NCBI GenBank assembly: GCA_045837725.1
Contig: JBEWZL010000149.1
Span: 62,001-111,151, forward strand
Length of the DNA stretch: 49,151 nt
Direction: 5' to 3'
Source of the DNA: Vermamoeba vermiformis
Taxonomy: Eukaryota
Part shown: positions 4,306-41,138 of the stretch, in pieces
How positions within the stretch are numbered: position 1 is the first letter of the stretch
Layout: each line of letters opens with the position of its first letter
Position numbers and translations under genes: made by a program
Notes under the pieces: model-generated
What the model was told of the DNA's origin: nothing
The model's database searches: none
What the model saw: only the letters and a program-made list of their open reading frames with translations

Positions 4306-7300
4306 TTATTTCTTTTCAGCCAGTATTTTCTTCAGTCGTTCATTTTCAGCCATTAATACTTCAACTTCGTTGCCTAGCGTCTTAATATCCTCCTATAAAT
4401 AAATCATCAGTATTGAAACTAATTTCCAGTACGCTACTTTAATTCATGAAAGAAATCTCGTACGCGAGATTAAAACGAAATTGAACGCTACATGAGGGTC
4501 AAAAATAAGACGTACCTGTAACTGCATGTTCTTCAACAACGTTTCTTCCATTACTGAGCCCATCTTATTAAACTTTTCATTTTCAAGCGCGTCTTTACGA
4601 GGACTCGAGAACAATCCACCGCTTTGCGCTGGAGTACTTGCTGACGGTTGTTGCGCCATATTAGCACCCATATACATCGAAAATTAGTCATCCGAGCATT
4701 ATGTACCAAGGAAGATAAAAATATGGCAATAATTTCTGCGAATAAAAAAACCATTTCGTACCTTGAGCATTAACTGTTGCTTTTGAATCAATCGACTCTT
4801 CTTGTCGAGTTCAATCGACAACTCGTTGATAGTATCTTTATACACATTCATCTAAATGGTTCATAGTAAGTAAGACATCGGACACTGCGGGATCTGAGCT
4901 AGATCTTACCTTCTCCTCCAAGAAGAAATTACGCTCTTGCAATTGACCCAATCGTACTCCCAAGATCTCAATATCCTTCTGCATCACGTGCGTAGTCGGT
5001 GCAGAGTTGTGTACTTGACTCGCGGTAATTGAGATAACAGGAGCTACGAGACCGGGGTTGTAGGTCGGAGTGGATGTGCCCGAGTTGTCTGTAGATTTGC
5101 GCGGTGAGGGCGTGGGAGTTGGTCGATCGAATTCAGCTGAAGACTATAAGCATAATATGATTAGTTGGAATACTTTCATAAAATATATTGAGTGTCAAGA
5201 GCTTACTCTGCTGGATTGGCCGCCAGTGCTATTTTCTCGACGATGACCATAGTTCGAAGAAGTACGATGAAGAGCTGTGGGACATGTTAATACAATACTA
5301 AGGGGCGTATAATATTGTGTACGTACTTGGAGTAATGGATCCGGATGCGGTCAAGCTGATCGAAGGCGAAGGCGGGGCAGCAGCTTGAAGTGCTTTAATT
5401 TGAGCTTGCAATTGTTTGACCATATTAATATTCTGCTTTTCAGCGATGGTGTGCTGCATTTGCAAGTCTTTGATGTGTTGCTCCAATTCCGCAATTTTAT
5501 TCTGACGCTCTTCGTGCGCCGCTTTTTCGTTGGAAATTTCGTCGTCCTTTGACTTCAAACTGCTCTCTAATTGCGTAACTTTGTCGCTAAGCTCGGCTAG
5601 TTTCTGCTGAGTAGTTTGATTTTCTTCTTGGAACTTTTTGTTTTGTTCTTCAGCCGTGTCTTTTTGGCCCTTTAACTCGGTCAATTGTGCCTCGATTTGT
5701 TCGATCTGCAAAAACGAGAATAAGACAATGATATTATAGGGCTATATATATATATTATATCGATCTTACTTGAGCCTTCAACGTAATGTTTTGTTCGGTT
5801 TGTTCTTTAACGCTATTTTGTTCTTTTTCTAATTCGCTCTTGTACTTGCCGCATTGAATAGCTGCGTTTTGGTGTTTTTCTAAATATAGAAATCGTTAGT
5901 TAATCTTTGCAAAAATGATCGTGCAAACGGTTTTACCTTTCAACGTGGCAACTTCTTTCTTCAATTGTTCCAAATCACTTTCAGCGCCAGTCACGGTGTG
6001 GGAAAGTTTCTAAAAAAGGAAATGTTAGCATACTTTGCAAAGCCAACGTCGATAAAATAATAATAAGACGAACCTCTTTCTCTTTCAATAGCGCGGTCAA
6101 TTGAGCCGCAGTATCATGATGTTTCTTTTGCAATTCTTCGTGTTGAGCCGTGACTTGTTCGTATTTCTTCGTAATATCGGAGAGGTCGTCCGAGAAATGT
6201 TGCAAACTTTCGCGCAAGGTATTAATTTGGCTATCCTACAATCACGAATAAACATTAGATACCTCGAACAAAGAATATCATTTTAAGTCATTCGTACCTT
6301 AGCTTGCAATAGTTCATCACGTTCATTAACAAATGCATCCGAGCGAACTGAATTCTTTTTCCACTCATCAGCTTGTTCTTTCAATTTGGTTGCTTTGGTG
6401 TTCAACTCGTTGAATTCTTTTTTCAACTTGTCGCGCTCACTGTTCCATTGCTCAGTTTTTTCCTGTTTATCAGTAGTCGGTTAGAGTTTGACAAGCGATA
6501 TTGCATATGACACGTGTCACAAAAATAGTTTGACACGTGTCATTGTATCGCAACGTACCTTCAATGTCTTTTCAGCGCGGTTCCTCTCCTGCATAATGGC
6601 CTTTTCAAGTTCTTGCACACGAGCCTCCAAGTTCTGAATGGCGTCACGTGCTGCGTCGAGTTCTTCCGCCTTGCCGCCCATGCGCTTGATAATCTCTTCG
6701 CGGTCTTTATTTCCAACGTCAACTTCTTTGCGCAATTGTTCAGCCTGTAACACCAACAAAAGGTTAAAATCATTATTATGGTATGATTTGGCTATTGCTT
6801 TGTTAGTACTTACGTTCTTTTCAGCAGCGGTAACTTTCTCCTTCAATTGCTCTAATTCAGTAGTGTGGGCGGCCTTCAATTTTCTACGAAATTGTTAGTC
6901 AATTGAGCTGACAGTTCGACAGCCTAAAATAGTGATCAGTATTACTGTCAATGACTTACTCGACCTGTTGCTGCTTGTCTTTGATCTTCTCTTGCAAATC
7001 AACCATGCCTTGCGTCAAGTCTTCAACTTCTTTGGCATGTTTTTCTTTCATCTCGGCGAGGGACGCGTTCAATCTTTGCAGTTCTTCGTCTTTGGTTTTA
7101 ACGAGCTCTGATTGGTCAGCTGACGCGGCTGATTGTTCTTTCAGTGAATTGAGTTCCGATTCCAAATGTTCGCGAATCGAATTCTTCTCGGCGAGATCTT
7201 TTTCGAGATCAGCGGACTTTTTGGTCAAAGCTTCAATTTGCGAATTCTTTTCGTCGGTCAATTTTTCCAATTGTTGCTTCATTTCGTCATTTGCAGATGT

Positions 7301-9912
7301 CAATGACTTGATTTCAGCGCTCAGTTGTTCATTTTGGGCCTTGAGTGTCGTCAATTCGTTAAGTTTTTCCGACATCTCTTCGTTGCCTCGTTCCAAGGTC
7401 GCGAGTTTTTCCGCTTTAGCGGTCAATTCTTCATTTTGAGCCTTTAAAGCGTCAAGTTCAGCTAATTTAGCCTTATTTGACTCATTTTCAGCTTTGAGCG
7501 AATCCAATTCTGCCAACTTTGCAGTCGATTCTTCGTTATTCTTCTTCAAAAGTTCAATTTCGCTTAGTTTTTCCGTCAACTCTTCGTTAGTCTTCTTGAG
7601 GACTTCGATCTCTTTCAATTGTTCCGTCAAACCTTCGTTATTTTTCTTGAGCTCTTCAATCTCGTTTAACTTTGCGCTCATTTCATCGTTCTGAGATTTG
7701 AGTGCATCGAGATCGGACAATTTCTTCCTCAATTCACCGTTCTCCGTGTCAAGATCGATAACTTGTTGCGCCAGGTCTTCATTGTTTATCTTGAAAAACT
7801 CCATTTCCTTCAATTTCGCCGCCAATTCTTCGTTGGTCTTCTTTAAGACGTCGATTTCTTTGAGTTTTTCCGCCAGATCCGCGTTCTGTTTCTTGACTTC
7901 ATCGAGTTCCTCCACTTTTTTCAACAATTCTTCGTTGCCTTGCTTAAAGATTCGAGATCGTCAATCTTTTGACGCAGTTCTTCGTTGTTCTGTTTCAACG
8001 CGGCAATCTCTTTGAGTTTTTCCGATGACACTTCGAGACTTTGCGTTAATTCAGAGACCTTAGAATTCAATTCTTCTCGTTCAGCAGTCAATTTGCTGAT
8101 CTGCGAATTCAATTCTTCTTTCTCCTTGGTCACTGATTCAACTTGCTTTGCGCCAGTTTCTTCGTGCTCCTTCAGTCTTTGCAACAATTCGTCATTCTGC
8201 TGTCTCAATTGTTCCGCTTCTTTCGTTACTTCTTCGAGTTTTCCCTGCGTCTCTTGTGCACCGCTAGCCAATTTAGCAGTCAACTCGTCATTGGTCTGTT
8301 GCAGCTTGTTGACTTCAGCCTCCAAAGTTGATTTTTGTGCGGAGATTTGTTCGAGATCTTGTTGCAATTTAGTAGCCGCGGCATCACTCTGCGATGATTT
8401 TTCAGTCAATTTTGTCAACTTTTCGTTGACTTCTGCGACGAGTTGATCGCGTTCATGAAGCTGTTCGACCAAGGTTTGCTTCTCTTGCCTGACATTCTCA
8501 AGCTTGTTTTGAAGCTCGCTGACTTGTGCTTGGTACTCACTATTCGATTCAACAACATTTTGTAGCCTAGTTGAATTTCACATCAATACGCAAATTCAAA
8601 AAGTGACCGGATCCAATTAAAAAAATAATTTCATATTTGCGAAAACTAAATAAATAAGCACTATAATAATATTATAATGTTATTATTATGGTACTTACTT
8701 TTCACTGAGCACGGTCAAAGCTTGATTATCAGATTGTTGTTGCGAATCGAGTTCGCTGTGTTTCTTTTCAGCCGAAGCAAGTTGCGCAATCTTTTCGCTC
8801 AAATCTTTGCTGAGCTGTTCTATTTTTAGCTCGTGTTGTTTCTCGTTCGATTTTAAGGTCTCGAGTTCAGTGTCTTTCAACCGAACATTTTCTTCGAGTG
8901 TTTGCAACTTCTCTTGAAAACCCTTGATAATATCTTCTTTCTTATGAATTTGCTGTTGCAATTCTTCCTTCAATTTATTAACCTCGTCTATAATATTTTC
9001 AAGCGATTAGATTCTGAAACAATGGAGATCTAGTGTACGATCCAACAAAGAAAATTCAATAGAAAGTTTGTAAATGCTCTAAATATAGTAAATATATCAT
9101 AGATAATGATATTAGTACTACATATCCCATATTAGCGTTGATATAATTATTTGATGCAAGATCTCATACCGTCCGAATGCGCGGCAACTCCATTAGTACC
9201 ATTAGCTTGATTACTGCCACTTTTCTTCAATTTATCGAATTCTTCTTGCAATGTTCGATTTGCTTCGTATAAACTCTTAATATTGCCCTTCAAAGCAGCT
9301 TGCTGGATTTGAAAAAAAAAGGTAGCGACGTTAGATCCGAAATAACGAAGTGAGGAGAGGAATTTTATGTGTAAAGACATGTATTTACCTGTTCTCTATT
9401 CTCTTCTGTTAGTTGCGTAATTGTTTGCATTAAATTCTTATTTTCAGCTATGATCGCAGCAATTTCAGCTTTATCTCTCGATTTTGACATTAGATCTGCT
9501 CATTAAATTAATTAATATTATTTAAAAATCATTCGGAAAAGCATGTAAACCGTTAGTAAGCGTTAATTTGGTTGCGTGTCTTCCGATCAGAATATCGCAT
9601 CTATTTTTCAATTAAAAATTTTCAAAACTTACCTGTCAATCTCTTAAGCTCCTTTTCCTTCTCTAATAGAGTATGCTCAAGATGCTCGAAGTCTAAATAA
9701 ATTTTATATAATTAATTATCGAAAAGATACGGGTATTTTATTATTAGCCAAATTATAAATAGATCGGCCGTAATTAATATCCTACCTTGATTTCTCTTAT
9801 TTTCGCGCTCAATATTTTCATATTTTTCTTGTTTTAATGCCAAGAGCTGCATTTGGAGAGTATTAAACTCTTCAAAGCTGATCGACACGGCTTCGTTGGA
9901 TTTGTCAGCCAT
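4306..9912 (-). CDS. Large coiled-coil protein, GRIPAP1/GRASP-1-like termini; apparent 1-nt deletion near 7944
   Basis: N-term SFEEFNTLQMQLLALKQEKY and C-term MEETLLKNMQLQEDIKTLGNEV resemble the conserved ends of GRIPAP1 as recalled; long heptad-rich ORFs 6956-8472; multiple GT-AG introns. Confidence 0.75.
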
Positions 9913-19092: not shown

Positions 19093-22000
19093 CTAATCCA
19101 TAGGATGAAGTTCATAAAAGCATACGTCTAAGCCATTCAAAGAAGTCTTAAACTCGATCTGCGACGAATTAAAGGTTTGTAGCAGTTCCACTTCGCCGTT
19201 GAGCATGACTTGCGTGAGAACATATGATTTGGCAGGAGATATCGCATAATCGAAGACCGCATCCATTTTCCAAAGCACATTTTTGATCTCGTCCAAACCA
19301 CCGTTCACGATAAAGATACCTAAACAACTCCGTTTAATAACTAATCAAGTTTCATATGTTTCAATAGGGGTCTTAGCCAGAATCTTTGTCCAGCCGAAAT
19401 CGAACGATCGAAAAACACCTGAAATCTTACCGAGAGAATTCTTTTCGCTAGAACTCCAGACTGTGCTTGCAATAGTCGGCACGCAATCATGCGAATTATC
19501 ACGAGTATAGTTATTATGTATTGGCCTCATGAGCTGTCCGCCAATGAAGTAATCCAAGCCCAGCGTTCTGTACCGCATCAAAGTCGCGATGTAGTCCACA
19601 ATGAACCCTTGGTGCTCGCTCTCGAAGAACTGTAAGTAGCCGTCAGCTCCATCCAAAGCAAACCAACCAAGCTGAGTGCCATACACGAACATCTTAACCG
19701 GGGTTAGTAGAAGATCCTTCCGCAGTTGTGTTACGTGTCACCGTATTGTCACGCCTCACTTACCGTCGCCATCTCTTTCGTAAATTGAGCGGGAGCTGAG
19801 GTCAAACGGCCAGAGAAGTATTTGCCGAATGTGATAGTGTGGTCGGAATAGACTGCTTGAAAGAGCGGTACCATTCGACAGTTTTTGTAACCTCCAATTA
19901 CCAAATAACCCGCGAGATACGGCATGTACACTTCTGCGTTTGACTCTGATGAAAATAGTTAATTAGACCAGATCTGGCTTGAAACAAAAAAAAAAAGAAA
20001 GGATTTGAGTAGACTCATAGCCCCCGCATTCAGCCAATGAAGGAAGTGTTCACCCCACGGGTCGGTGGAGCGAATCGAGGAGGCTGAGTATTTTCCTCGT
20101 CCACTAATTCCATCAAACAAACTGCAAAACAACGAGTTTTGTTCGGAACCAATGTTCTCGCTTAATTTTGTTGTGGGAGCAGACAGAGCGTTTAGTCCGC
20201 AACCAAAAATGCGCTTCCTTCACTTTAACAGCACAGCTTACCTGAAACCAACGCGAAACTGGTGTCGATCTCGGATCTGATTCGGATCAGGACGTCGTTG
20301 TAACCATCGGACTGGTTCAAAGGGTCAGAAAACGTCTAAAAAAAGTATCTGAGGTTGCATTACCCAGTATGAGCCTCCTCCACGAGGGTGCTTGTGTTTC
20401 GGGTCGTAGAAGAGCGCGGCAGGCTTAGATGCGAGCTAGTTCTTCGTTAGAAAATTATCTAAAAATAGTACGACTTACTTGGTCAATATATACACCGTCA
20501 ACAAAATGTTTCTTGGCAAATTCAGTGGTAAGTGAGCTGATCGGAAGTTAATTTTTTGCGATCGAATCTGATTTGATTCTTACGTCAGCTTTTTTTGCCA
20601 GAAAGATGTCGAAGGACACATAACCGCCCATTGTTGATCATTTTCGTACTCTTCAATATACATTGGAGCGTGGCTGGGCTTAGATCTCGCTGCACTGGAT
20701 TTACAGCAGTGCTTCTCGCCCTCGTCAGGAACCCAAGTTTGCGTATTTATATCATATATCCTTCCGTTGATATAAGGCACCAATCTCACTCCTGTTATAC
20801 TCTTTAGACCATTTCTGGTACCAGATCGTTCGTGTGATTTCTTACCTTGCGCTTGAAGTCGCTTAGTGACCTCATCAAAATGCTCTTTAGCAGGGAAATA
20901 ATTCGGAAAGTTGGTTTCCCATCGCTCTTGATGCCACACATACCAATGCGCCACTACATTGGATGCGTTGAAATGCTTGCTCTTGTTAAAGACAGCAAGG
21001 AACCGATTGACGTTGCGTTCAAACACGAGCGGATCACCTGATAGATACATTGTTACTTCCGGAGAAAGAGACAATTTTCACTGCTTAGACTAACCTAAAT
21101 CATATTCCAACTCTCTGGGAGTCCAATGCGAGTTGATCCACAAGGTCGTTTCTTTGAACCACTGCGGAATATCTTTGCGCGCCTTCGTAGGTCCAGCCCT
21201 ATATGTAAGGTAAGCATATTATCCTTATTAGTAATAAAGCTAGTGGAACTTACTTTGTCCAAGGAGCGTTCTTTAAGGCCCAATTGCGATAGATCTGAGA
21301 GCCATCCCACCAGTCGCCACAAAACGGGCCTACAATCGATGATATTATAGATAATTCCAACGATCGGCCCTACTTACCGATGAGAAACGGAACGGATTCG
21401 ATCTGCCAAGTCAACGGCAGGATATTGTTTTCAGGGATGAGCTTTGCAGTAAATCCAATTCCTAAGGTATGAAATATTAGTTATACGTTGTTCTATTGTT
21501 GCGATTTAGTTGCCTTTCAACGTGGTAAAAGATTGCAGCCCTTTTTGAGTTGCTGTCGGATCTATTATACCGTAGAACAGCCCAAGACCACGACTGCACG
21601 GCATAGTACTGTTTTTTGCCTTTTCAGAATGGTGTATCATAAAGGGCATTGAAACTGGACCTGAAGGATATCGGTCACCGGTCCAGCTCGGTAACACTTT
21701 GCGTTCACCCAGTTCTACAACAATAGAGCTTATTAACAGCGGTAAAAATATATCAGGAGCGAGATATTACCATTAGGTACGTATACTACGTCGTTTAGAA
21801 GTTTGCCAGCGAGATTGGAAACAATCATAAAGTTATAATAAAATAACGCTAGATCTCCACCCACCGGCCCCTACGACATGTTAGGTTAGTATACATTTTA
21901 CAGTAAATGCACAGCCTACTATCAATATCTTGCTCTCTGCCAAGCCACTTGGTTGCAGTACAATTTGTACCGAAACATTGACGGACGAGTTTGTCCCTTT

Positions 22001-22547
22001 AATCGCTAGCCAATTCGTAAGTTTAATGTAAAAAATAGCTGTATTTTATGCTTAACGTACTAGTATTAATCCAGTGCAAGTACAGAGTTGCCGTTGAATT
22101 GCTTGTAGCGAGTTCGTATTTCATAGTTTCCGTTGGAGCAGATCCATCTACGAGCTGAAGACTTTTGCATTAAATATCTACATTATCCTTATTAAGGGTA
22201 TTATGAGCTTACGTATTCAACGCCCTGCACATCCCGAAAGGATAGGATCCAAATCTGGTTTGGAGTTAAACCGTTCATGCAGGAGTAGGCATCTGAGCTG
22301 TTAATAAACTTCAACGCGATTGATTGCAGCCCAAAACTTTGTCTATCGAATTGCCAACGCGCGTTTGAATTTTCTAATATTATATTACCGCTACAATATT
22401 CATTTTAATTAGATCCGAATTTTGTATTGAAAAATAATGTCTTGAAATGCTAAATATATTTTATTACCTCTTTTCGATCGTCTCCCCGCGATGTAAACCA
22501 ATGAGACAACAGATTAACAAGCAAGCCACTACAAACCGTATTATCAT
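19093..22547 (-). CDS. Secreted DUF6259-like putative glycoside hydrolase (many introns)
   Basis: Signal peptide MIIRFVVACLLICCLIG; HWYVWH..NFPNYFPAK, VRLVPYINGRIYD, MCPSTSFWQ, VDGVYIDQ, HPRGGGSYW, ESNAEVYM match the DUF6259 pattern as recalled. Confidence 0.7.
19986..20000 (-). terminator. Poly-T tract (TTTC then T11) directly 3' of candidate ncRNA; Pol III-type terminator
   Basis: Plus-strand A-run 19986-19996 abuts the 3' arm of the terminal stem. Confidence 0.5.
20001..20111 (-). ncRNA. Candidate novel structured small RNA (~111-118 nt) nested in a 296-nt intron (19946-20241)
   Basis: GC-rich island; ends pair (GGAATT-AGTGGAC / GTCTACT-C-AAATCC); inner stems AGCCTCC/GGGGGCT and ATTCGCT/GGCTGAAT; followed by poly-T; preceded by TCCCACAA at -67..-60. 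Confidence 0.65.
20171..20178 (-). promoter_or_regulatory. DUSE/USE-like snRNA-type upstream element TCCCACAA
   Basis: Matches the Dictyostelium upstream sequence element consensus WCCCAYAA at roughly the expected ~60 nt distance from the candidate RNA 5' end. Confidence 0.55.
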
Positions 22548-26001: not shown

Positions 26002-29000
26002 ATGGGCAAGCAAGTCTCTCGTAAAACGAGAAACATCTTGATTATCTGCGCTGCGGCCTTCGTCGCCGCTGCTGCAGCCGTTCTTCTTGGAGTTTTGCTT
26101 ACTCAATTACCCAAAAACGGTGATAACAATAACCCTCAAGTCGGTAAGCGAATTTTATTCGATCTGCGGTTTAATTTGTTTTTAATTTTTCAATTCATCG
26201 TGACATACATTTGGTCCGGTCCCAACCGAAGATTGACTTTTTAATCCAGAATATCTTCCACAAAGCGCTAAAGGAGAACTGCTTGTTGCTGAAAAAGTCT
26301 GGGCTACTCGTCCAAATGGTGATGCTCTTATTATTGCGAGAAGCTACGACGGAAACGTGTGGGAAGCTATGCCAGATCAAGACAACGAACCTCCACAAAT
26401 TGATTGCAATGACCAAGGTCAATGCACCATGCAGACTGACGGAGAGTTCAAGACTTACTCCGTGTATGTACCTCAACAACTCAAGGAACTTTCTCCAATG
26501 CATCTCGCCTCTCGTCTTCACTTGCAAGCTACCTTCGGTGCTACCAAGGACGAGTTGTTGCGTGTTTCAAGCGCCTACGGCACTGACTACAGCCTCTGGG
26601 TTCTGGATCAAATGAGATTGACTCCTACCTACTCGAGAACGTACTACCGTCAACGTGCTAACGCTCGCCCTGGTCACTTCCAAATGGGACGCACTACCAA
26701 GCCGTGCGATATTGGCTCACGCTGGCACAGCTACTTGTTCGAGGCTACTGACAAGTACCGCTCGCTTCAGATTACTTTGAATAGTGCTGCAAGCCGATTC
26801 GTCATCCGAGTCAACAACGTTGTGCGTGGTGAAGTTACTACCTTATTCAACAAGCCTTATCCCGCCGTTGGCTACACTTTCCCGTTGAACTTGCGCATCT
26901 GCACTGTGATCGAAGAAGTCGGAGGAGCGATGACCCTCACTCTCACCAACCAAACTCAGGTTTGCAACATTGGCTGGAAGAACCCTGCCATCGAATACAT
27001 TACCGCCAGTGCTATTCAAACTTATGGACCCAACGACGCTCTTCTTGACCCTGTCATTGGTGCTCGTACCGGATCTGTCATTCTCAAGAACCGTGTGGTC
27101 TCCTGCACTGGTGCTTCAGATGGTGCCGGTAACTACTACATTCGCCAAGGCAACACCACTTACATCTTCGACGCTCGTATCAAGTTGATGCGCAACACGA
27201 TGGACACACCTTCCTACGTTGAAGCTGCATACACTGGTCAATGCCCTGTTGTTGCCAAGACTTACGAAAATCGTGGCCAATGTGTCAGACGTTCAGCGTG
27301 CAGTGGATCGACTTCATTCAAGTCTGCAACTTTCACTCTTAACGATGACATCCTCCGTGCTTGGTACACCAACTCCTCGCTCTACGTCTACTACGTCACT
27401 GATTTGAGACTCGCTGATCCCTACGACGTGTCTCCTTGCTCTAGTGGTACCTCCCGCTGGCAGCGCATCGTCAAAGGAGCCTGCCCTCAACCTACCAACT
27501 TGGATACTACTACTAAGGCCACTATAGTCGCTGCTCTCACCGCAACTAATGACCCCAATCCTTACGTCCGTGACATCTCGTTGACCGGTGCTAACTGCAA
27601 TCCCGTTAATGCTACTATTGGCGCTCAAATCGATGCTGCTGGTGAATGCTTCCAACACGTTCATCCCGATCTTTACAGCGTTCGTGACTTCACCCGCTGG
27701 GTCGATATTCACGACGGCAACAGCGATGCCATGGCTAACGGAAAGTAAGCTTAAAAAGTATTTTAATCCACGCGTGACGGTTCTAATTATCTTTACAATT
27801 AGCCCCAACCCTATTTCCAAGTGGGCAGAGATTTACAAGCAAACCTTCCTGCCATTCCCTTCCACTCATCCAATGAGCCGCTTCGCTGATCGTCGTGGTT
27901 TTATTCCTCTCGTTGGCCGCTACGGAGACACCATCAACTTCCAAGATCTGTCTACTGATTTGCAAACTGAAGAAATTGCCACTTTGGTTGGCGCTCTGCG
28001 TCCGACCTCTGCTGGTGACAGCTTTGTTGCTTGTGGCTCGTACGGAGAGGTTGAAAACATTGCCGATTTGGGCTACCACTACAACGTGTGGAACTTCAAC
28101 GCCACGGCTTACCAAACCGAATACATGGAATGGCCTGTCCCTGCTAAGACTGATCACTTCACCGTCCTCGAGAACGTCGCTTTGAAGGCAACCGATCAAC
28201 TTCGTCAACGTGTTGCTTGGTCTTTGCTCAATATTGTCACTATTGCCTCACAAGATATCGACTTCCAAGAGTACATTGAAGGCTGGCTCAGCTACTACGA
28301 CATGTTAGTTCGCAACGCTTTCGGCAACTACATGGATGTTATGCGCGATGTATCTTATCACCCTCTGATGGGTCAATACCTCAGCTACTACCAAAACAAG
28401 GCTTACTCTGTCCAAAACAACTACCCCGATGAGAACTACGCTAGAGAAATCATGCAACTTTTCAGCATTGGTTTGTGGCGACTCAACGACGACGGCACTC
28501 AAAAGGTCGACCAAGACGGCGTTCCTATGGAGACTTATACTAACGACGATATCATCGACTTTGCTCGTTTGTGGACTGGTTTTGATCGTCAAGCCATCCG
28601 TGACAACTTTGCCACTATCTTCGCCTTCGGCACTTCTTCCAACTACGTCGACAAGATGCAAATCAGACCTCAATGGCGCGACAGATTCCCCAAGGCCAAG
28701 CTCGACTCTGGTTACCTCGGTGATACTTACCCTCTTTGCGATGACATGCCCGCTCAAGCTTTCTTGCGTGAAGGTGCTCGTTACGAGTTCACTGGCTCGT
28801 TCTCCGTTGAAGGTGACTTGATTGACGCTGAAAATACCACCATTGGTGTTGGTTTGCGTGGCCGTCTCCAACCGTCAACTACCTCAGCCCTTTACCAAGC
28901 CCTCTGCGCTCCTGCTTCAGCTGGTGGTGCTTGCACTTTCCCTCTGACTGTCACTTTGACTTCCAACTTGGCTTGCACCGGTAAAGAATGCAACGCTCAG

Positions 29001-32000
29001 CGCGTCATTGCAGTCAAGATTGTGGATCCTGTTGCTAAGGTCACTCGATACTACCAATACGTCGGCCTGCCTTGCGTCCGCTTGACTCTCTTTGACAACG
29101 GTCAATTGATCAAGCGTGATGGTTCTCGTTCTCAATGCGCTGATCCCACTACTCGCGTGGCCTCACCTACTTGCTGCAGTGGTACCGCCGTTGCATCAAA
29201 CTATACCTCTGAGTGCTTGTTCGCCAACGAAGCCGCTGACTTTGCCACCACTCAACAACGTTGTCAAAGCATGGGTCTTAGCGTCTGCTCCACTAGCCAG
29301 GTTAAACTTGGAACTACTTGGGCTAATTCGTGTGCCCAATATGCCTATGCTTGGACCAACACCTCTTGCTCCGTTCAAGTCCAAGTCTACGCTACTGGTC
29401 AAATCGGTATCGTTGATCCTATTGGCAGCAATTGGTTCAACATTCTCAAGCCCAGCTCGAACAACCTCTTCCGCGTCCGTTGGGATAATGCAGTCTATCC
29501 TCAAGCCGATAACGTTACTTGCCCTGCTGGCTGCGGCTTCCAAGCTACTCCTGATGGCGCTGGTTCTTGCTTGTGCAACTTCACTATCAACGCCGGACCT
29601 ATCTTCGGACAACTCTCCGATCTCAACGGAATCAACGCCGATGACGCTATCAACGCTATTGCCCAAAAGGCATTCGTTGGATCCGTCAAGCCTGGTCTCT
29701 ACGACGAAGGTACTTACTCTACTTGCAGCAGCTCTGAATGCACTCGATTGTCCAACGTCGTTGTCTGGCTGCACAAGGACGACAACGGTGGCTTGAGCGA
29801 GAAAACAATCTTCCAATTGCCTCCTGTTCGTCTTGGTGGTCGCGATCGTTACTTGCTCAACAAGGTCTCGACTGTTGTTGTCAGTGACTCGTACTCCTTC
29901 CGCAATCCTCCTCACTTCACACCGCTCCTCGGTGAGCTCACTGACGTTGCTGCTGACTACCTCTCGGACAACTTGTGGGTCCGCAAGGCTGAGTACGAAG
30001 TGGAGTCATTGCTCGAGCACTTGTTCGAACACGACAACACTGCCGTCTTCGTGTCCTACCGTCTCATTCAACAAATGGTCACTTCCAACCCTTCACCTCG
30101 TTACGTTAAGTCAGTAGTCAATGCCTTCCGCAACGGTGCCGTTGGTGACGTTAGATTCTCTGGCAAGTACGGTGACTTGGGAGCCACTGTCTATGCCATC
30201 TTGATGGACCACGAAGCTCGTTCACCCATCGTTGAAGCAGACAAGACTTACGGCATGTTGCGTGACCCCTTGCTCAAGGTCTACCACTTCATGCGATCGC
30301 TTGGCTACACCTCACCGAAGGGCCGTGAAGTCGCTCTTTGGGACATGGATCAAGTCATTGGTGTGCAGCCTTTCACCGCCCCGACTGTGTTTGGTTTCTA
30401 CTTGCCTGAATACAGACCTCAAGGCCGTGTTGGCGACGCTGGTCTCGTCGGTCCTCAAGTCCAAATTGCCACCACTCCTGCCTTGGTTGGATACCTCAAC
30501 GGCATCACTTCGCTGATTGACAACGGCCTTACCAGCTGCGACGGTGGATTTGCTCTCCCGCAAACCTTTGGACCCCGCACTTGCAATGCTAACGGCCCTA
30601 ACCCCACTGCTGACGGCATCGTCTCGTACACTCCCCCTGACGGTGTTGGCGTTGAAGGTATTATTGATGAGCTCGACATGATTCTCCTTGGCGGCCGCTT
30701 GAACCCTCAAACTCGCGCTACTTTCATCCAAGAGTACAACAACATCTACACGAACGACACTATGGCCCCTCAAGCTTTGCGACACTTGCTCAAGCTCTTT
30801 GCCATCAGCTCCGAGTACCAAACTACCAACATAAACGCTTTGACAACTACGCCACGCACCGAGTCTAATGCAGTGAAGCCTCAAGGTCGCAAGTTCAAGG
30901 CCATCGTCGTCATCTTCGAGTACGGTGGTTGCGACAGTTACAGCTTGCTCGTGCCTCACTCCAACTGCCCCAAGAAGGACATGTACAACGAGTACCGGAC
31001 TGTTCGTACTGACGCTGCTTTGGACAAAAGCGTTCTCTTGCCCATCAACGTCCCTGCTGGCACTCAGCCCTGCAACACGTTCGGTGTTCATCCGATCATG
31101 AAGAACGTACAAGCCCTGTACAACGAAGGCAGCGCTCTCTTCGCTACTAACATTGGTTCGTTGGTTGAGCCCGTCACCAAAGACCAAGTCAACAGACGCA
31201 CTGGCCGCCTTCCTCCTTCACTCTTCGCACACAACATTATGCAACGTAACGTCCAGAACGTGTACGCGCAGTACCTCGCTGCCAATGGTGTGCTCGGTCG
31301 TCTCACTGACGCGCTTTTGGAGAACAACCCGCCTTACGCCTCAGCCCTTTTCAGTCTCAGTGGCAACGTGAAGATGGTCCAAGGCAAACTGCCCGCTGAT
31401 TACCTCTCTGGCTCAGCTGGTGTTGTCAGAGTCCGCAGCTTGAACAAGATTGCGTCTGCTCTCGGAAACATCACTGAATATGTCTCTGACTCCGTGTACG
31501 CTGACACTTACGCTGACACGATGCGCACTTCTGTCGGCAAGACTGAAGTCCTCGGCACACTTCTCGCCAACACCAATCTCACCACAACCTTCGGCAAGAC
31601 CGGTCTTGACTTGCAAATGTCACAAGTTGCCAAGCTGATCAAGTCCATGCCTGACGCCACTGGCATTGAACGTGCCGTGTTCTTCACTTCCCTGGGCGGC
31701 TTTGACACTCACGCCACTTTCGACTTGAGCGCCGTACTTGGGCCCTGTTGACACTGCTGTTGGCAACTTTGCGGCTGAAATGAAGGCTCAGGGCCGATGG
31801 GACGACGTTGTGATTCTTTCTGTGTCAGACTTTGCACGTACTTTGACTAGCAACGGCAAGGGCACTGATCACGCGTGGGGAGGCAATCACTTTGTCGCTG
31901 GTGGCAGCATCAAGGGCGGTCAGATCCTCGGTCACTACCCCGAAATTCTTTCCGACGACGGTCCTCAGATCCTCACTAGAGGTCGTGTTATTCCGACGAT

Positions 32001-32139
32001 GCCTTTTGAAGGCATGTGGAAGGGCATTGCCGAGTGGTTCGGAGTGCCTGCCGACCAAATGGAAAAAGTTTTGCCTAACGTTAACAACTTCCCTGCTGAC
32101 GTCATGTACTCCAAGGAACAGATGTTCAAGAAGTTCTAA
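26002..32139 (+). CDS. ~1,990-aa membrane-anchored DUF1800 + DUF1501 fusion protein (3 exons; apparent +1 insertion near 31741)
   Basis: Introns 26144-26249 and 27745-27802; N-terminal TM anchor; DUF1800 motifs LQATFG, DQLRQRVAW, PDENYAREIMQLFSIGL, VTSNPSPRYV, APTVFGFY; DUF1501 motifs GGCDS, GGFDTH, SDFART, GTDHAWGG. Confidence 0.85.
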
Positions 32140-39406: not shown

Positions 39407-41138
39407 ATGCACGTACAGAGGTGGCTTCCATCATTCGCTAGAACATTATCAACACGGCAAAATATTGCCAGAAAATGCATTCGCACTAGCACACTATTTT
39501 TCTGTACGCCCCAAACAGAAGCATCTAGTTTCTAGATCTTTCGTCACCTCGTTCGCTGCATCCAAAAAAGTATCATTATTTGATACCACAGCTGGTCTTG
39601 AATATTCACCCGGCAAACGGATAGCTGATTCAGTGCCTCACGAGAACAAACCAATCGTAGTTGTCTTTGGATGGCTTGGCGCTTCACGAAAAAATCTTCA
39701 AAAATACGTAGATTGGTATACAGAACGCGGATATGATACTATTGATTATTTAGCACCGAGGTAATTATTCAAAAAACTTGGGAAAATTGGATTTAATTCA
39801 GCAACGAACTTGCGCTTTTACCTTCTTTTTAACGCAATATCATTTCATAATAACTAGTTATATATTTTTGCGATACATTTAGTCGTATGCATATTGATAA
39901 TCAATATACTGCGGTTGAAAATTTCAAACTTGATATTTCTTCTCCCGACGGAATTCCGGTGTTCCGAGTAGCATTCCTTTGCAAAAATTTTATCAATTTT
40001 ATTATTTATAAATAAATAACCGATCAACCTCAGCATGGCCTCGGCGTTCATCACCGCGACAGTACGAACAAGTCACATGGCCATGAAACAACTAGTCGAA
40101 CATTACAACACAGCCGCGCAATCTCATCAACGAGATATAGTCTTCCACGTGCTCAGTTTGAACGGATTTTATCACTATTTGTTCCTATTAATAGAAATGC
40201 GCAATTCGAAGCATCACAGCGATTTATTGAAGCACGTCAAAGGTGTCATTATTGACTCGGCACCAGCACGCATAACTTTTGACATTTTGACACGTGGATT
40301 TGTTGGAGCTGTCATGGGCGTATTCAAGCATAAAGTAAGTATTGCTATATTATATTAAAAGGACGATCGGATCTCGTTTTAAAAATACTTTGACATTTGC
40401 AAACACGTTACTTTCGACAATTGAATTTTTGTTACAAATTCATATTAAGGGCTCGCGATAAATTATACAGGTAGTAGGTGCCTTTGTTAATAAGTAGTGA
40501 CCCGAACACGATGTTGCAAGACGTCTCGGGCACGACCACACTAACAAGAATGCACCGCTTCCCGTCCGATCAGCGAAGTTAAGCTTGTTCAGGCCTTCTT
40601 AGTACTGGGGTAGGAGACTACCTGGGAATCGGAGGTGTTGTGCTCTTTCTCTTTTTTACTTTTTATAGTCCTTCATATTCTTTTATCTTGTTAAATATGA
40701 GGCAAGATCCAGATCCAGATCCGCGTCACATTTTTTTGGCATTTTTGTCGTAAGCTTAACGTTTTTGTTTAGCCTCAATATGAACACCCGATTGTAACAC
40801 CGATATTCAAGTTTTTATGGAGATTAGCATTAGCGAGGCCGAGGAATAGACAATTTATCGATCTGATCCACAAAGAATTAATTCAAGGTCAACCAATCCA
40901 CAGCGATCAATTGTATTTATATAGCACTGCCGATGAGTTAATTCCGCACGAAGAAATAGAGTATCAAATCAACGTCCAGAAAGAGCGCGGAGTCAATGTC
41001 AAAACTCACAATTTTGTGGTCACACCGCACGTGGCTCATTTTAGATTTCAACCTGCGGTATATGGCAAGCTAATAGAGGACTTTTTGGAGAGCAAGTGGA
41101 AGAAACACGACCAACAACAGGATCCGGTTCCTAAATAA
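39407..41138 (+). CDS. TMEM53/DUF829-family alpha/beta-hydrolase-fold protein; start uncertain (39407 needs a 1-nt correction at 39459-39462, or spliced start at 39316)
   Basis: VVVFGWLGASRKNLQKYVDWY, FHVLSLNG, GVIIDSAP, LYLYSTADELIP, PHVAHFRFQPAVY; introns 39761-40033 and 40335-40772. Confidence 0.85.
40528..40646 (+). rRNA. 5S ribosomal RNA gene (119 nt) inside an intron
   Basis: Helix I GGGCACGAC/GTTGTGCTC; conserved CCGATC..GAAGTTAAGC, TTAGTACTGG, GGAGAC, CCTGGGAA; followed by T-rich terminator TTTCTCTTTTTT. Confidence 0.95.

Follow-up and report, generated by a model that had tools for sequence, protein, structure and literature searches.

A 105-nucleotide (nt) unit was found in a stretch of 49,151 nt of the Vermamoeba vermiformis genome (NCBI GenBank assembly GCA_045837725.1, contig JBEWZL010000149.1, positions 62,001 to 111,151 of the forward strand), which is called the window below and numbered from its first letter. 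The unit lies on the minus strand within an oversized intron of a gene for a DUF6259 protein, and it is represented by unit-length, head-to-tail contigs in a public RNA library. The 105-nt RNA is very probably genuine and the product of a small-RNA gene of a new, undescribed family. An earlier note, made from the letters of the window, had proposed at this place a structured small-RNA gene with a promoter element and a terminator of its own; most likely the unit is indeed a self-contained transcription unit of the small-RNA type, either of RNA polymerase III (Pol III) or of the small nuclear RNA (snRNA) type.

20006 to 20110, minus strand: the RNA unit, 105 nt, GC content 0.53, delimited by head-to-tail contigs of a root metatranscriptome and able to fold

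Public sequencing runs were screened with the words of 19700-20500; none of the runs held at least half of the words, and six held 5-7% (X2, X3, X5 and X6 about 5% each). Four runs, X1, X4, X7 and X9, were compared with 19780-20320. X4 is a root metatranscriptome, a random-primed RNA library kept as contigs. Three of its contigs matched, all of them within 20006-20110, and the depth was zero in all bins of 19780-19988 and 20122-20320, which comprise the remaining intron and both flanking exons. Record 2 of this run (129 nt, depth 4.2) runs from 20098 to 20006 with 2 other letters in 93, and then goes on from 20110 to 20075 with none in 36; at this joint, 20006|20110, the match goes back by 105, the short side holds 36 letters and no letter is common to the two sides. 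A second variant with this topology, in which seven letters at the joint are different, is given by record 3 (128 nt, depth 4.3); the stretch that both variants share forms record 4 (36 nt, depth 8). We read the 30-letter end overlaps of records 2 and 3 as a 31-mer graph of two cycles with one common segment. Because the contig joins 20006 directly to 20110 with a period of 105, the unit is present in the X4 library as a 105-nt circle or as a head-to-tail multimer. The head-to-tail form extends from G20110 at the 5' end to A20006 at the 3' end and lacks the AAUCC trailer and U tract that follow in the genomic sequence; in both variants the joint falls in a loop that keeps AGAAU. The earlier note did not foresee an environmental RNA ending short of trailer and T run, with its end joined to 20110.

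The GC content of 20006-20110 was 0.53, against 0.43 and 0.28 in the two intron flanks, so that the GC-rich island described previously within the intron is indeed there. The minus strand of the unit folded to -35.7 kcal/mol (z -2.15; 4 of 200 shuffled sequences equally good), whereas the plus strand reached -24.9 kcal/mol (z +0.53; 135 of 200 equally good). The fold is specific to the minus strand because it holds four G-U pairs, which are A/C mismatches on the plus strand. With the flanks added (19995-20120), the minus strand gave -39.3 kcal/mol (z -1.96; 7 of 200 equally good), and the unit folded as a circle gave -29.7 kcal/mol with all stems kept (z -1.64; 27 of 500 equally good). The elements of the fold are the following.

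20099 to 20105, minus strand: 5' arm of the terminal stem, AGUGGAC, pairing with 20008-20014 in the minimum-energy and centroid folds
20008 to 20014, minus strand: 3' arm of the terminal stem, GUCUACU, pairing with 20099-20105 in the same two folds
20001 to 20005, minus strand: 3' trailer AAUCC, pairing with 20111-20106 and extending the terminal helix; missing from the head-to-tail form
20079 to 20085, minus strand: 5' arm of the second stem, AGCCUCC, pairing with 20019-20025 in the minimum-energy and centroid folds
20019 to 20025, minus strand: 3' arm of the second stem, GGGGGCU, pairing with 20079-20085 in the same two folds
20049 to 20074, minus strand: hairpin of 10 base pairs (bp) with a 6-nt loop (20064-20059), 20074-20065 pairing with 20058-20049; includes the covarying pair 20066:20057
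20093 to 20098, minus strand: GAGGAA, candidate pseudoknot partner of UUCCUU by sequence complementarity
20040 to 20045, minus strand: UUCCUU, inside a 23-nt single-stranded stretch of the centroid fold

In its genomic context the terminal helix consists of 12 pairs (20111-20109/20003-20001, 20107-20106/20006-20005 and 20105-20099/20014-20008), one of them G-U, with an A/A mismatch at 20108/20004 and a bulged C at 20007 as its interruptions; a terminal stem of about 13 bp including a G-U pair had been proposed, and apart from these interruptions it was recovered. The outer pairs join UU 20107-20106 to AA 20006-20005 and GGA 20111-20109 to UCC 20003-20001. This running of the helix into the flanks (G20111 and AAUCC) is what a precursor would show, and we count it in favour of a gene. 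The proposed second stem, AGCCTCC/GGGGGCT (20085-20079 with 20025-20019), was likewise present in both the minimum-energy and the centroid fold. On the other hand, the proposed inner stem ATTCGCT/GGCTGAAT occurred in no predicted fold; it competes with the 10-bp hairpin (20074-20065/20058-20049), which takes its 5' arm and which had been overlooked. The fold also contains a weak 3-bp hairpin and a three-way junction, and 23 nt (20048-20026) are single-stranded in the centroid fold. GAGGAA (20098-20093) and UUCCUU (20045-20040), for which a pseudoknot had been suggested, are complementary and both unpaired in the centroid fold, and they remain a candidate pseudoknot. As a separate observation, GA dinucleotides at 20098-20097 and 20016-20015 of the minus strand are opposed at the inner end of the terminal stem, near a bulge of 2-3 nt and the three-way junction; from general rules we take this arrangement to be kink-turn-like, and presumably it could bind a protein of the L7Ae/Snu13 type.

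Comparison of record 3 with the minus strand of the genomic unit revealed a compensatory change: A to G at 20066 and U to C at 20057 are the two sides of one pair, which turns from A-U into G-C. A third change, C to U at 20068, stands opposite G20055 and turns C-G into U-G, which fits the minus strand only, and a fourth, C to U at 20064, lies in the hairpin loop. These four listed differences are all compatible with the 10-bp hairpin, which is the only helix showing covariation; the listed variant places all lie in it, and the further differences (2 in record 2 and 5 in record 3) come without listed positions. In our judgement, four linked changes in a separately assembled contig represent a real variant.

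The unit is framed by two signals of the kind expected of a small-RNA gene.

20171 to 20178, minus strand: TCCCACAA, a match to the dictyostelid consensus WCCCAYAA, at -68 to -61 from 20110
19986 to 20000, minus strand: TTTC followed by T11, a candidate Pol III-type terminator; T11 is 19996-19986 and starts 10 nt past the unit

Class I RNA genes of Dictyostelia carry an element of this type about 60 nt upstream of their start, and in D. discoideum it is also reported in front of numerous further genes for non-coding RNAs, some transcribed by Pol II and others by Pol III (PMC7919456). The upstream placement of TCCCACAA that had been reported (20178-20171) holds with respect to a 5' end set independently by the head-to-tail joint, 20110, from which the element is 61 nt away. 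WCCCAYAA occurs 3 times in the window, against 4.65 expected, and 87 of 100 shuffled sequences contained at least 3; it is not enriched, and the other two copies are within protein-coding sequence. The weight of TCCCACAA therefore comes from its position only: from 4.65 occurrences per 98,302 strand positions, the chance of an 8-mer within 5 nt on either side of the stated distance is about 5e-4.

The T11 tract, noted before as following the unit immediately, is there, and it exceeds every other T run of the window in length. Both strands together contain eight runs of at least 8 T and two of at least 10 T; the density of the former is 0.081 per kilobase per strand, which gives a chance of about 0.002 that one starts at most 25 nt downstream. 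Among the 30 runs of at least 7 T, the 120 nt before T11 have the highest GC content (0.50) and the lowest folding energy (-36.3 kcal/mol). The other runs were also tried as markers of small-RNA genes; the best of them, 1484-1491 on the minus strand, belongs to an aconitase intron, where it forms the pyrimidine tract. Judged by these sequence signals, independent transcription of the unit by Pol III is plausible.

The same data bear on the reading that the unit has no function, being the chance remnant of a GC-rich insertion, and that the contigs are an assembly or reverse-transcription artefact of an unrelated abundant RNA. The low depth of the contigs (about 4 to 8), fold z-scores of only about -2 and the lack of enrichment of the upstream motif would all suit it. 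However, over 105 consecutive letters the contigs differ from the unit at 0-2 positions, and they end exactly at its ends; template switching at microhomology is disfavoured by a joint that has no common letters; the linked changes preserve a helix; and T11 and the GC content are both extremes of the window. We therefore regard this explanation as very improbable.

We scanned the whole window with 4227 Rfam families, and at gathering level only a 5S rRNA gene was matched. Permissive Rfam scans (E up to 10) of 19900-20300 and 19985-20125 gave 2 and 3 matches, respectively, all at least 26 bits under the gathering scores, and those overlapping the unit were all on the plus strand: snoR143, sR53 and a 9.3-bit partial CPEB3 ribozyme (E 7.8). 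ARAGORN found no tRNA in the window, in a 401-nt context of the unit or in a head-to-tail triple of it. These results agree with the earlier failure to match the unit to described RNA families. A small nucleolar RNA (snoRNA) of the box C/D or H/ACA type was rejected: the only matches were on the plus strand and scored 12.3 to 14.8 bits, where the gathering scores are 49 and 50, and the unit has neither an ACA 3 nt from its 3' end nor a CUGA next to the terminal stem. A full-text search for four 17-letter strings from the unit found none of them in the main texts of the papers covered, and the available parts of the literature on circular small RNAs of Dictyostelium and on intronic 5S genes of amoebae contained nothing bearing on it.

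The unit lies entirely, and in sense, within an intron of the DUF6259 gene, whose exon ends were set by tblastn with two relatives (P0001 and P0002).

19100 to 22340, minus strand: DUF6259 host gene (Pfam, 1.4e-21)
19946 to 20241, minus strand: host intron of 296 nt, GTAAGC...CATCAG, with exon ends from tblastn; contains the whole 105-nt unit in sense

The exon upstream of this intron ends with ...FALVS and the downstream one begins with ESNAEVY. Since a reading frame continued across the 5' splice site runs into a stop after five codons, the 296-nt stretch is a true intron, and the length given for it previously is correct. The introns of the DUF6259 gene are short and of the GTAAGT type; the next two in the 5' direction measure 43 nt (20478-20436) and 52 nt (20363-20312), and the 296-nt intron is far above them.

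The only other RNA gene that Rfam finds in the window is nested in the same manner.

40528 to 40646, plus strand: 5S rRNA gene, 104.7 bits (Rfam)
40335 to 40772, plus strand: 438-nt intron of a DUF829 gene, containing the 5S gene in sense

The DUF829 exon ends with ...FKHK at 40334 and resumes with PQYEHP at 40773. Directly after the 5S gene comes TTTCTCTTTTTT, which is similar to the T tract following the 105-nt unit. Both oversized introns seen in the window thus contain a small-RNA gene, and the intronic 5S gene is a precedent, in the same window, for a small-RNA gene nested in sense, which we count in favour of a gene of its own for the unit. The upstream regions of the two had no common motif longer than 7 nt; they share two 7-mers only, at differing distances from the starts (CCGAACA at -36 and -26, ATTTTTG at -100 and -103). 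The lack of a common upstream motif is expected if the 5S promoter is internal, and the window holds no other snRNA-type gene for an upstream comparison. If the unit is a Pol III gene, this organism places Pol III genes in oversized sense-strand introns, which raises the question of interference between Pol II and Pol III.

The location of the unit also suggests a different origin: it may have no promoter of its own, be freed from the spliced host intron and be trimmed to a protein-protected core like intronic snoRNAs, the T run being mere intron sequence. Its position on the host gene strand and entirely inside the intron accords with this, as does the mature 3' end, which precedes the T run so that Pol III termination is not required; the lack of enrichment of the 8-mer points the same way. 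Against an intron-derived RNA stand the nested 5S gene, whose promoter is certainly its own, T11 as the window's longest T run only 10 nt from the unit, and the 8-mer at the documented distance from an independently found 5' end. Furthermore, no box C/D or H/ACA family was matched, the weak snoRNA matches being on the other strand and at least 35 bits under gathering, and X4 contained no host exon, although a stable RNA could outlast its mRNA. Taking both sides together, we consider processing from the host intron unlikely.

A self-contained gene with the following course of events is the reading that we hold to be somewhat better than an even bet. The element at -68 to -61 would set the start at G20110 or G20111, and the polymerase would stop in the TTTC-T11 tract. 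The transcript would fold into a panhandle in which the 5' end is paired with the 3' part including the AAUCC trailer, and in which a three-way junction bears the 10-bp hairpin and the 23-nt single-stranded stretch. The trailer and the U tail would be removed at A20006, and the ends, held 4 nt apart by the terminal helix, would then be joined. The product would be a stable, covalently closed circle of 105 nt with its junction in a 7-nt loop (CA|GAAUU) closed by A20105-U20008; such a closed and strongly structured RNA would withstand exonucleases. By analogy with Y and vault RNAs, its role would most likely be that of a protein-bound scaffold or decoy.

A number of points weigh against this reading. 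With respect to the RNA, the joint comes from one fully bridging contig, of depth 4.2, in one run; the short side of record 3, of depth 4.3, has 30 letters, one under the 31-letter rule, and letter differences at a depth below 5 may be errors. The contigs give neither strand nor ends and cannot prove RNA as opposed to DNA, and since X4 is a metagenome, the RNA may stem from a relative and not from this locus. X7 and X9, raw RNA reads with the same species label, each had 1 partly fitting read among about 12.9 million records; the host exons had none, and these runs speak neither for nor against expression. With respect to the sequence, the fold z-scores are modest, near -2, and the circular fold has a z of only -1.64. 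The upstream 8-mer lacks enrichment, and no TATA-like box was seen near -30 on reading the sequence. The rule of an element at about 60 nt is known from Dictyostelia only, and its authors expected none outside that group (PMC7919456); its use here would be an extrapolation. No relatives were found either: a second copy of the unit is not present in the window (after the self-match, the best blastn E was 1.1); a search of metagenome contigs with a 20-mer from the most conserved part gave one locus (L001), which lies inside a protein-kinase-like reading frame with unlike flanks and was rejected as a chance match; and two scans of viral contigs and one of prokaryote genomes gave no match to the unit. 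Finally, the cut site 20006 is within a continuous predicted helix and not in a bulge, and a start at 20110 would bear a triphosphate; for these two reasons, no known cut-and-ligate pathway fits cleanly. The circular form is thus the most interesting and the least secure part of the interpretation.

We compared the unit with the known systems that it resembles. Y and vault RNAs are Pol III panhandle RNAs of about 85-140 nt, and the unit is like them in size, in the long terminal helix pairing its 5' and 3' ends and in the downstream T run. However, the Y and vault RNA models of Rfam did not match the unit at gathering level or at E up to 10, so that the vault/Y-RNA likeness drawn in the earlier note comes down to a panhandle shape. 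The Ro-binding helix of Y RNAs has a conserved bulged C on its 5' strand, whereas the sole bulged C of the unit (20007) is on the 3' strand of the helix. The environmental form of the unit also differs from Y and vault RNAs in being joined head to tail without a U tail. Vault RNA genes have internal box A and box B promoters (PMC7904556); in the unit, partial look-alikes of these boxes are AGTGG at 20105-20101 and TCGATTC at 20078-20072, as judged by eye against the box consensus.

The dictyostelid Class I RNAs share with the unit a WCCCAYAA-type element about 60 nt upstream, a terminal stem joining the ends, a downstream T run and a GC-richer island (PMC7919456); of these, the upstream element corresponds here to TCCCACAA. 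Class I RNAs are 42-85 nt long, start with AAG, end with CUGU, carry an 11-nt motif beside the stem and, according to the same text, were not found outside Dictyostelia (PMC7919456), whereas the unit is 105 nt long, starts with GAAUU and ends with CUCA.

Cutting at bulge-helix-bulge motifs, followed by ligation, gives rise to some small circular RNAs: tRNA-intron circles (tricRNAs), the products of permuted tRNA genes and archaeal circular small RNAs. The unit is like tRNA-intron circles as a small, gene-encoded, non-spliceosomal circle, and its ends are staggered by 4 bp, which is the spacing of the central helix in a bulge-helix-bulge. It differs in that ARAGORN found no tRNA around or inside it, permuted form included. 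Processing at a bulge-helix-bulge was rejected, both cut sites being in a continuous helix without 3-nt bulges in the minimum-energy fold.

Viroid-like and retrozyme circles resemble the unit in two respects, head-to-tail RNA in a metatranscriptome and sequence variants in one sample. The unit might accordingly derive from the insertion of a selfish element with small circular or tandem RNA, be it viroid-like, retrozyme-like or a transcribed satellite, and the head-to-tail RNA would then be the replicating or tandem form of that element. Such an origin would be consistent with a genomic copy that is exactly one unit long and single in the window. It would also be consistent with a weak direct repeat around the unit and the T tract, TTTGTTTGATG at 20111-20121 upstream and TTTGTTTCAAG at 19979-19989 downstream (minus strand; 9 of 11 letters alike), which could be a target-site duplication or a chance likeness in a T/G-rich intron. 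In contrast, the unit is a chromosomal copy framed by a promoter-like motif and a terminator-like tract, its helix runs on into the flanks, and one polarity only folds well. Its 105 nt are less than half of the 220-450 nt of viroids (PMC8781251) and far below the 600-1000 nt of retrozyme circles (PMC5680766). Neither strand matched a self-cleaving ribozyme, apart from the 9.3-bit partial CPEB3 match already mentioned: the genomic copy, as distinct from the form spanning the joint, gave no Rfam match to hammerhead, hairpin, twister, pistol, hatchet or hepatitis delta virus (HDV) ribozymes. By eye, a hammerhead core was absent from both strands; an HDV-like fold tried by hand was also rejected, as pairing of the 5' end with 20076-20072 is limited to 5 bp and that strand has no hairpin before it. 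In run X1, labelled as probably DNA and from a close relative, a 168-nt contig covers 20139-20306 with 7 other letters at a depth of 3.2; in this thin coverage the unit itself is not covered, and no sign of a high-copy tandem DNA array was seen. We consider a selfish element still less probable than processing from the host intron.

The unit works like a Pol III panhandle RNA, yet these comparisons do not place it in the Y, vault, Class I, snoRNA, tRNA-intron circle or viroid-like groups. It stands out by its RNA-level support and covariation without a family, and by a stable form that is apparently a unit-length circle. Pol III RNAs of the small structured kind, such as Y, vault, Class I and signal recognition particle (SRP) RNAs, are few, and with every new family a further part of cell biology has opened up. 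To our knowledge, they are barely catalogued outside animals and yeasts, and the gene-encoded small circles that we know of in eukaryotes have their origin in tRNA introns or in back-splicing. A circle from a dedicated small-RNA gene would imply a route of end-processing and ligation undescribed for such transcripts. A wider proposal, that a chromosomal Pol III-type gene with a panhandle transcript of about 115 nt gives a 105-nt closed circle and so represents a new class of eukaryotic circular non-coding RNA, neither back-spliced nor from a tRNA intron, is one that we put forward tentatively, as a possibility with the chances rather against it. If true, the class would be sufficiently conserved to turn up in root metatranscriptomes. 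It would also be at the lower size limit of circular-RNA surveys: since one large survey dropped monomers below 100 nt (preprint 10.1101/2022.07.19.500677), a circle of 105 nt is at the edge of the size range searched.

The surroundings of the unit showed some further features. The whole window has a GC content of about 39%, introns of 43-52 nt and genes of bacterial type. In a protein search DUF6259 was named almost only from Planctomycetes, Verrucomicrobia and similar bacteria, and the closest relative was 55% identical; a Ras fragment was 96% identical to two proteins. Because the DUF6259 family is otherwise named almost only from bacteria and yet carries spliceosomal introns here, the host gene is, judged from its sequence, an older acquired gene.

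26237 to 32139, plus strand: GC-rich block (0.49-0.54, against about 0.39 elsewhere) with very long open frames
6956 to 8577, minus strand: long coiled-coil reading frames of 334 and 218 amino acids, rich in NEEL and KLKE repeats

Three overlapping frames of the GC-rich block contain the bacterial-type domains DUF1800 and DUF1501, and the block resembles a gene gained by horizontal transfer, with few introns or none.

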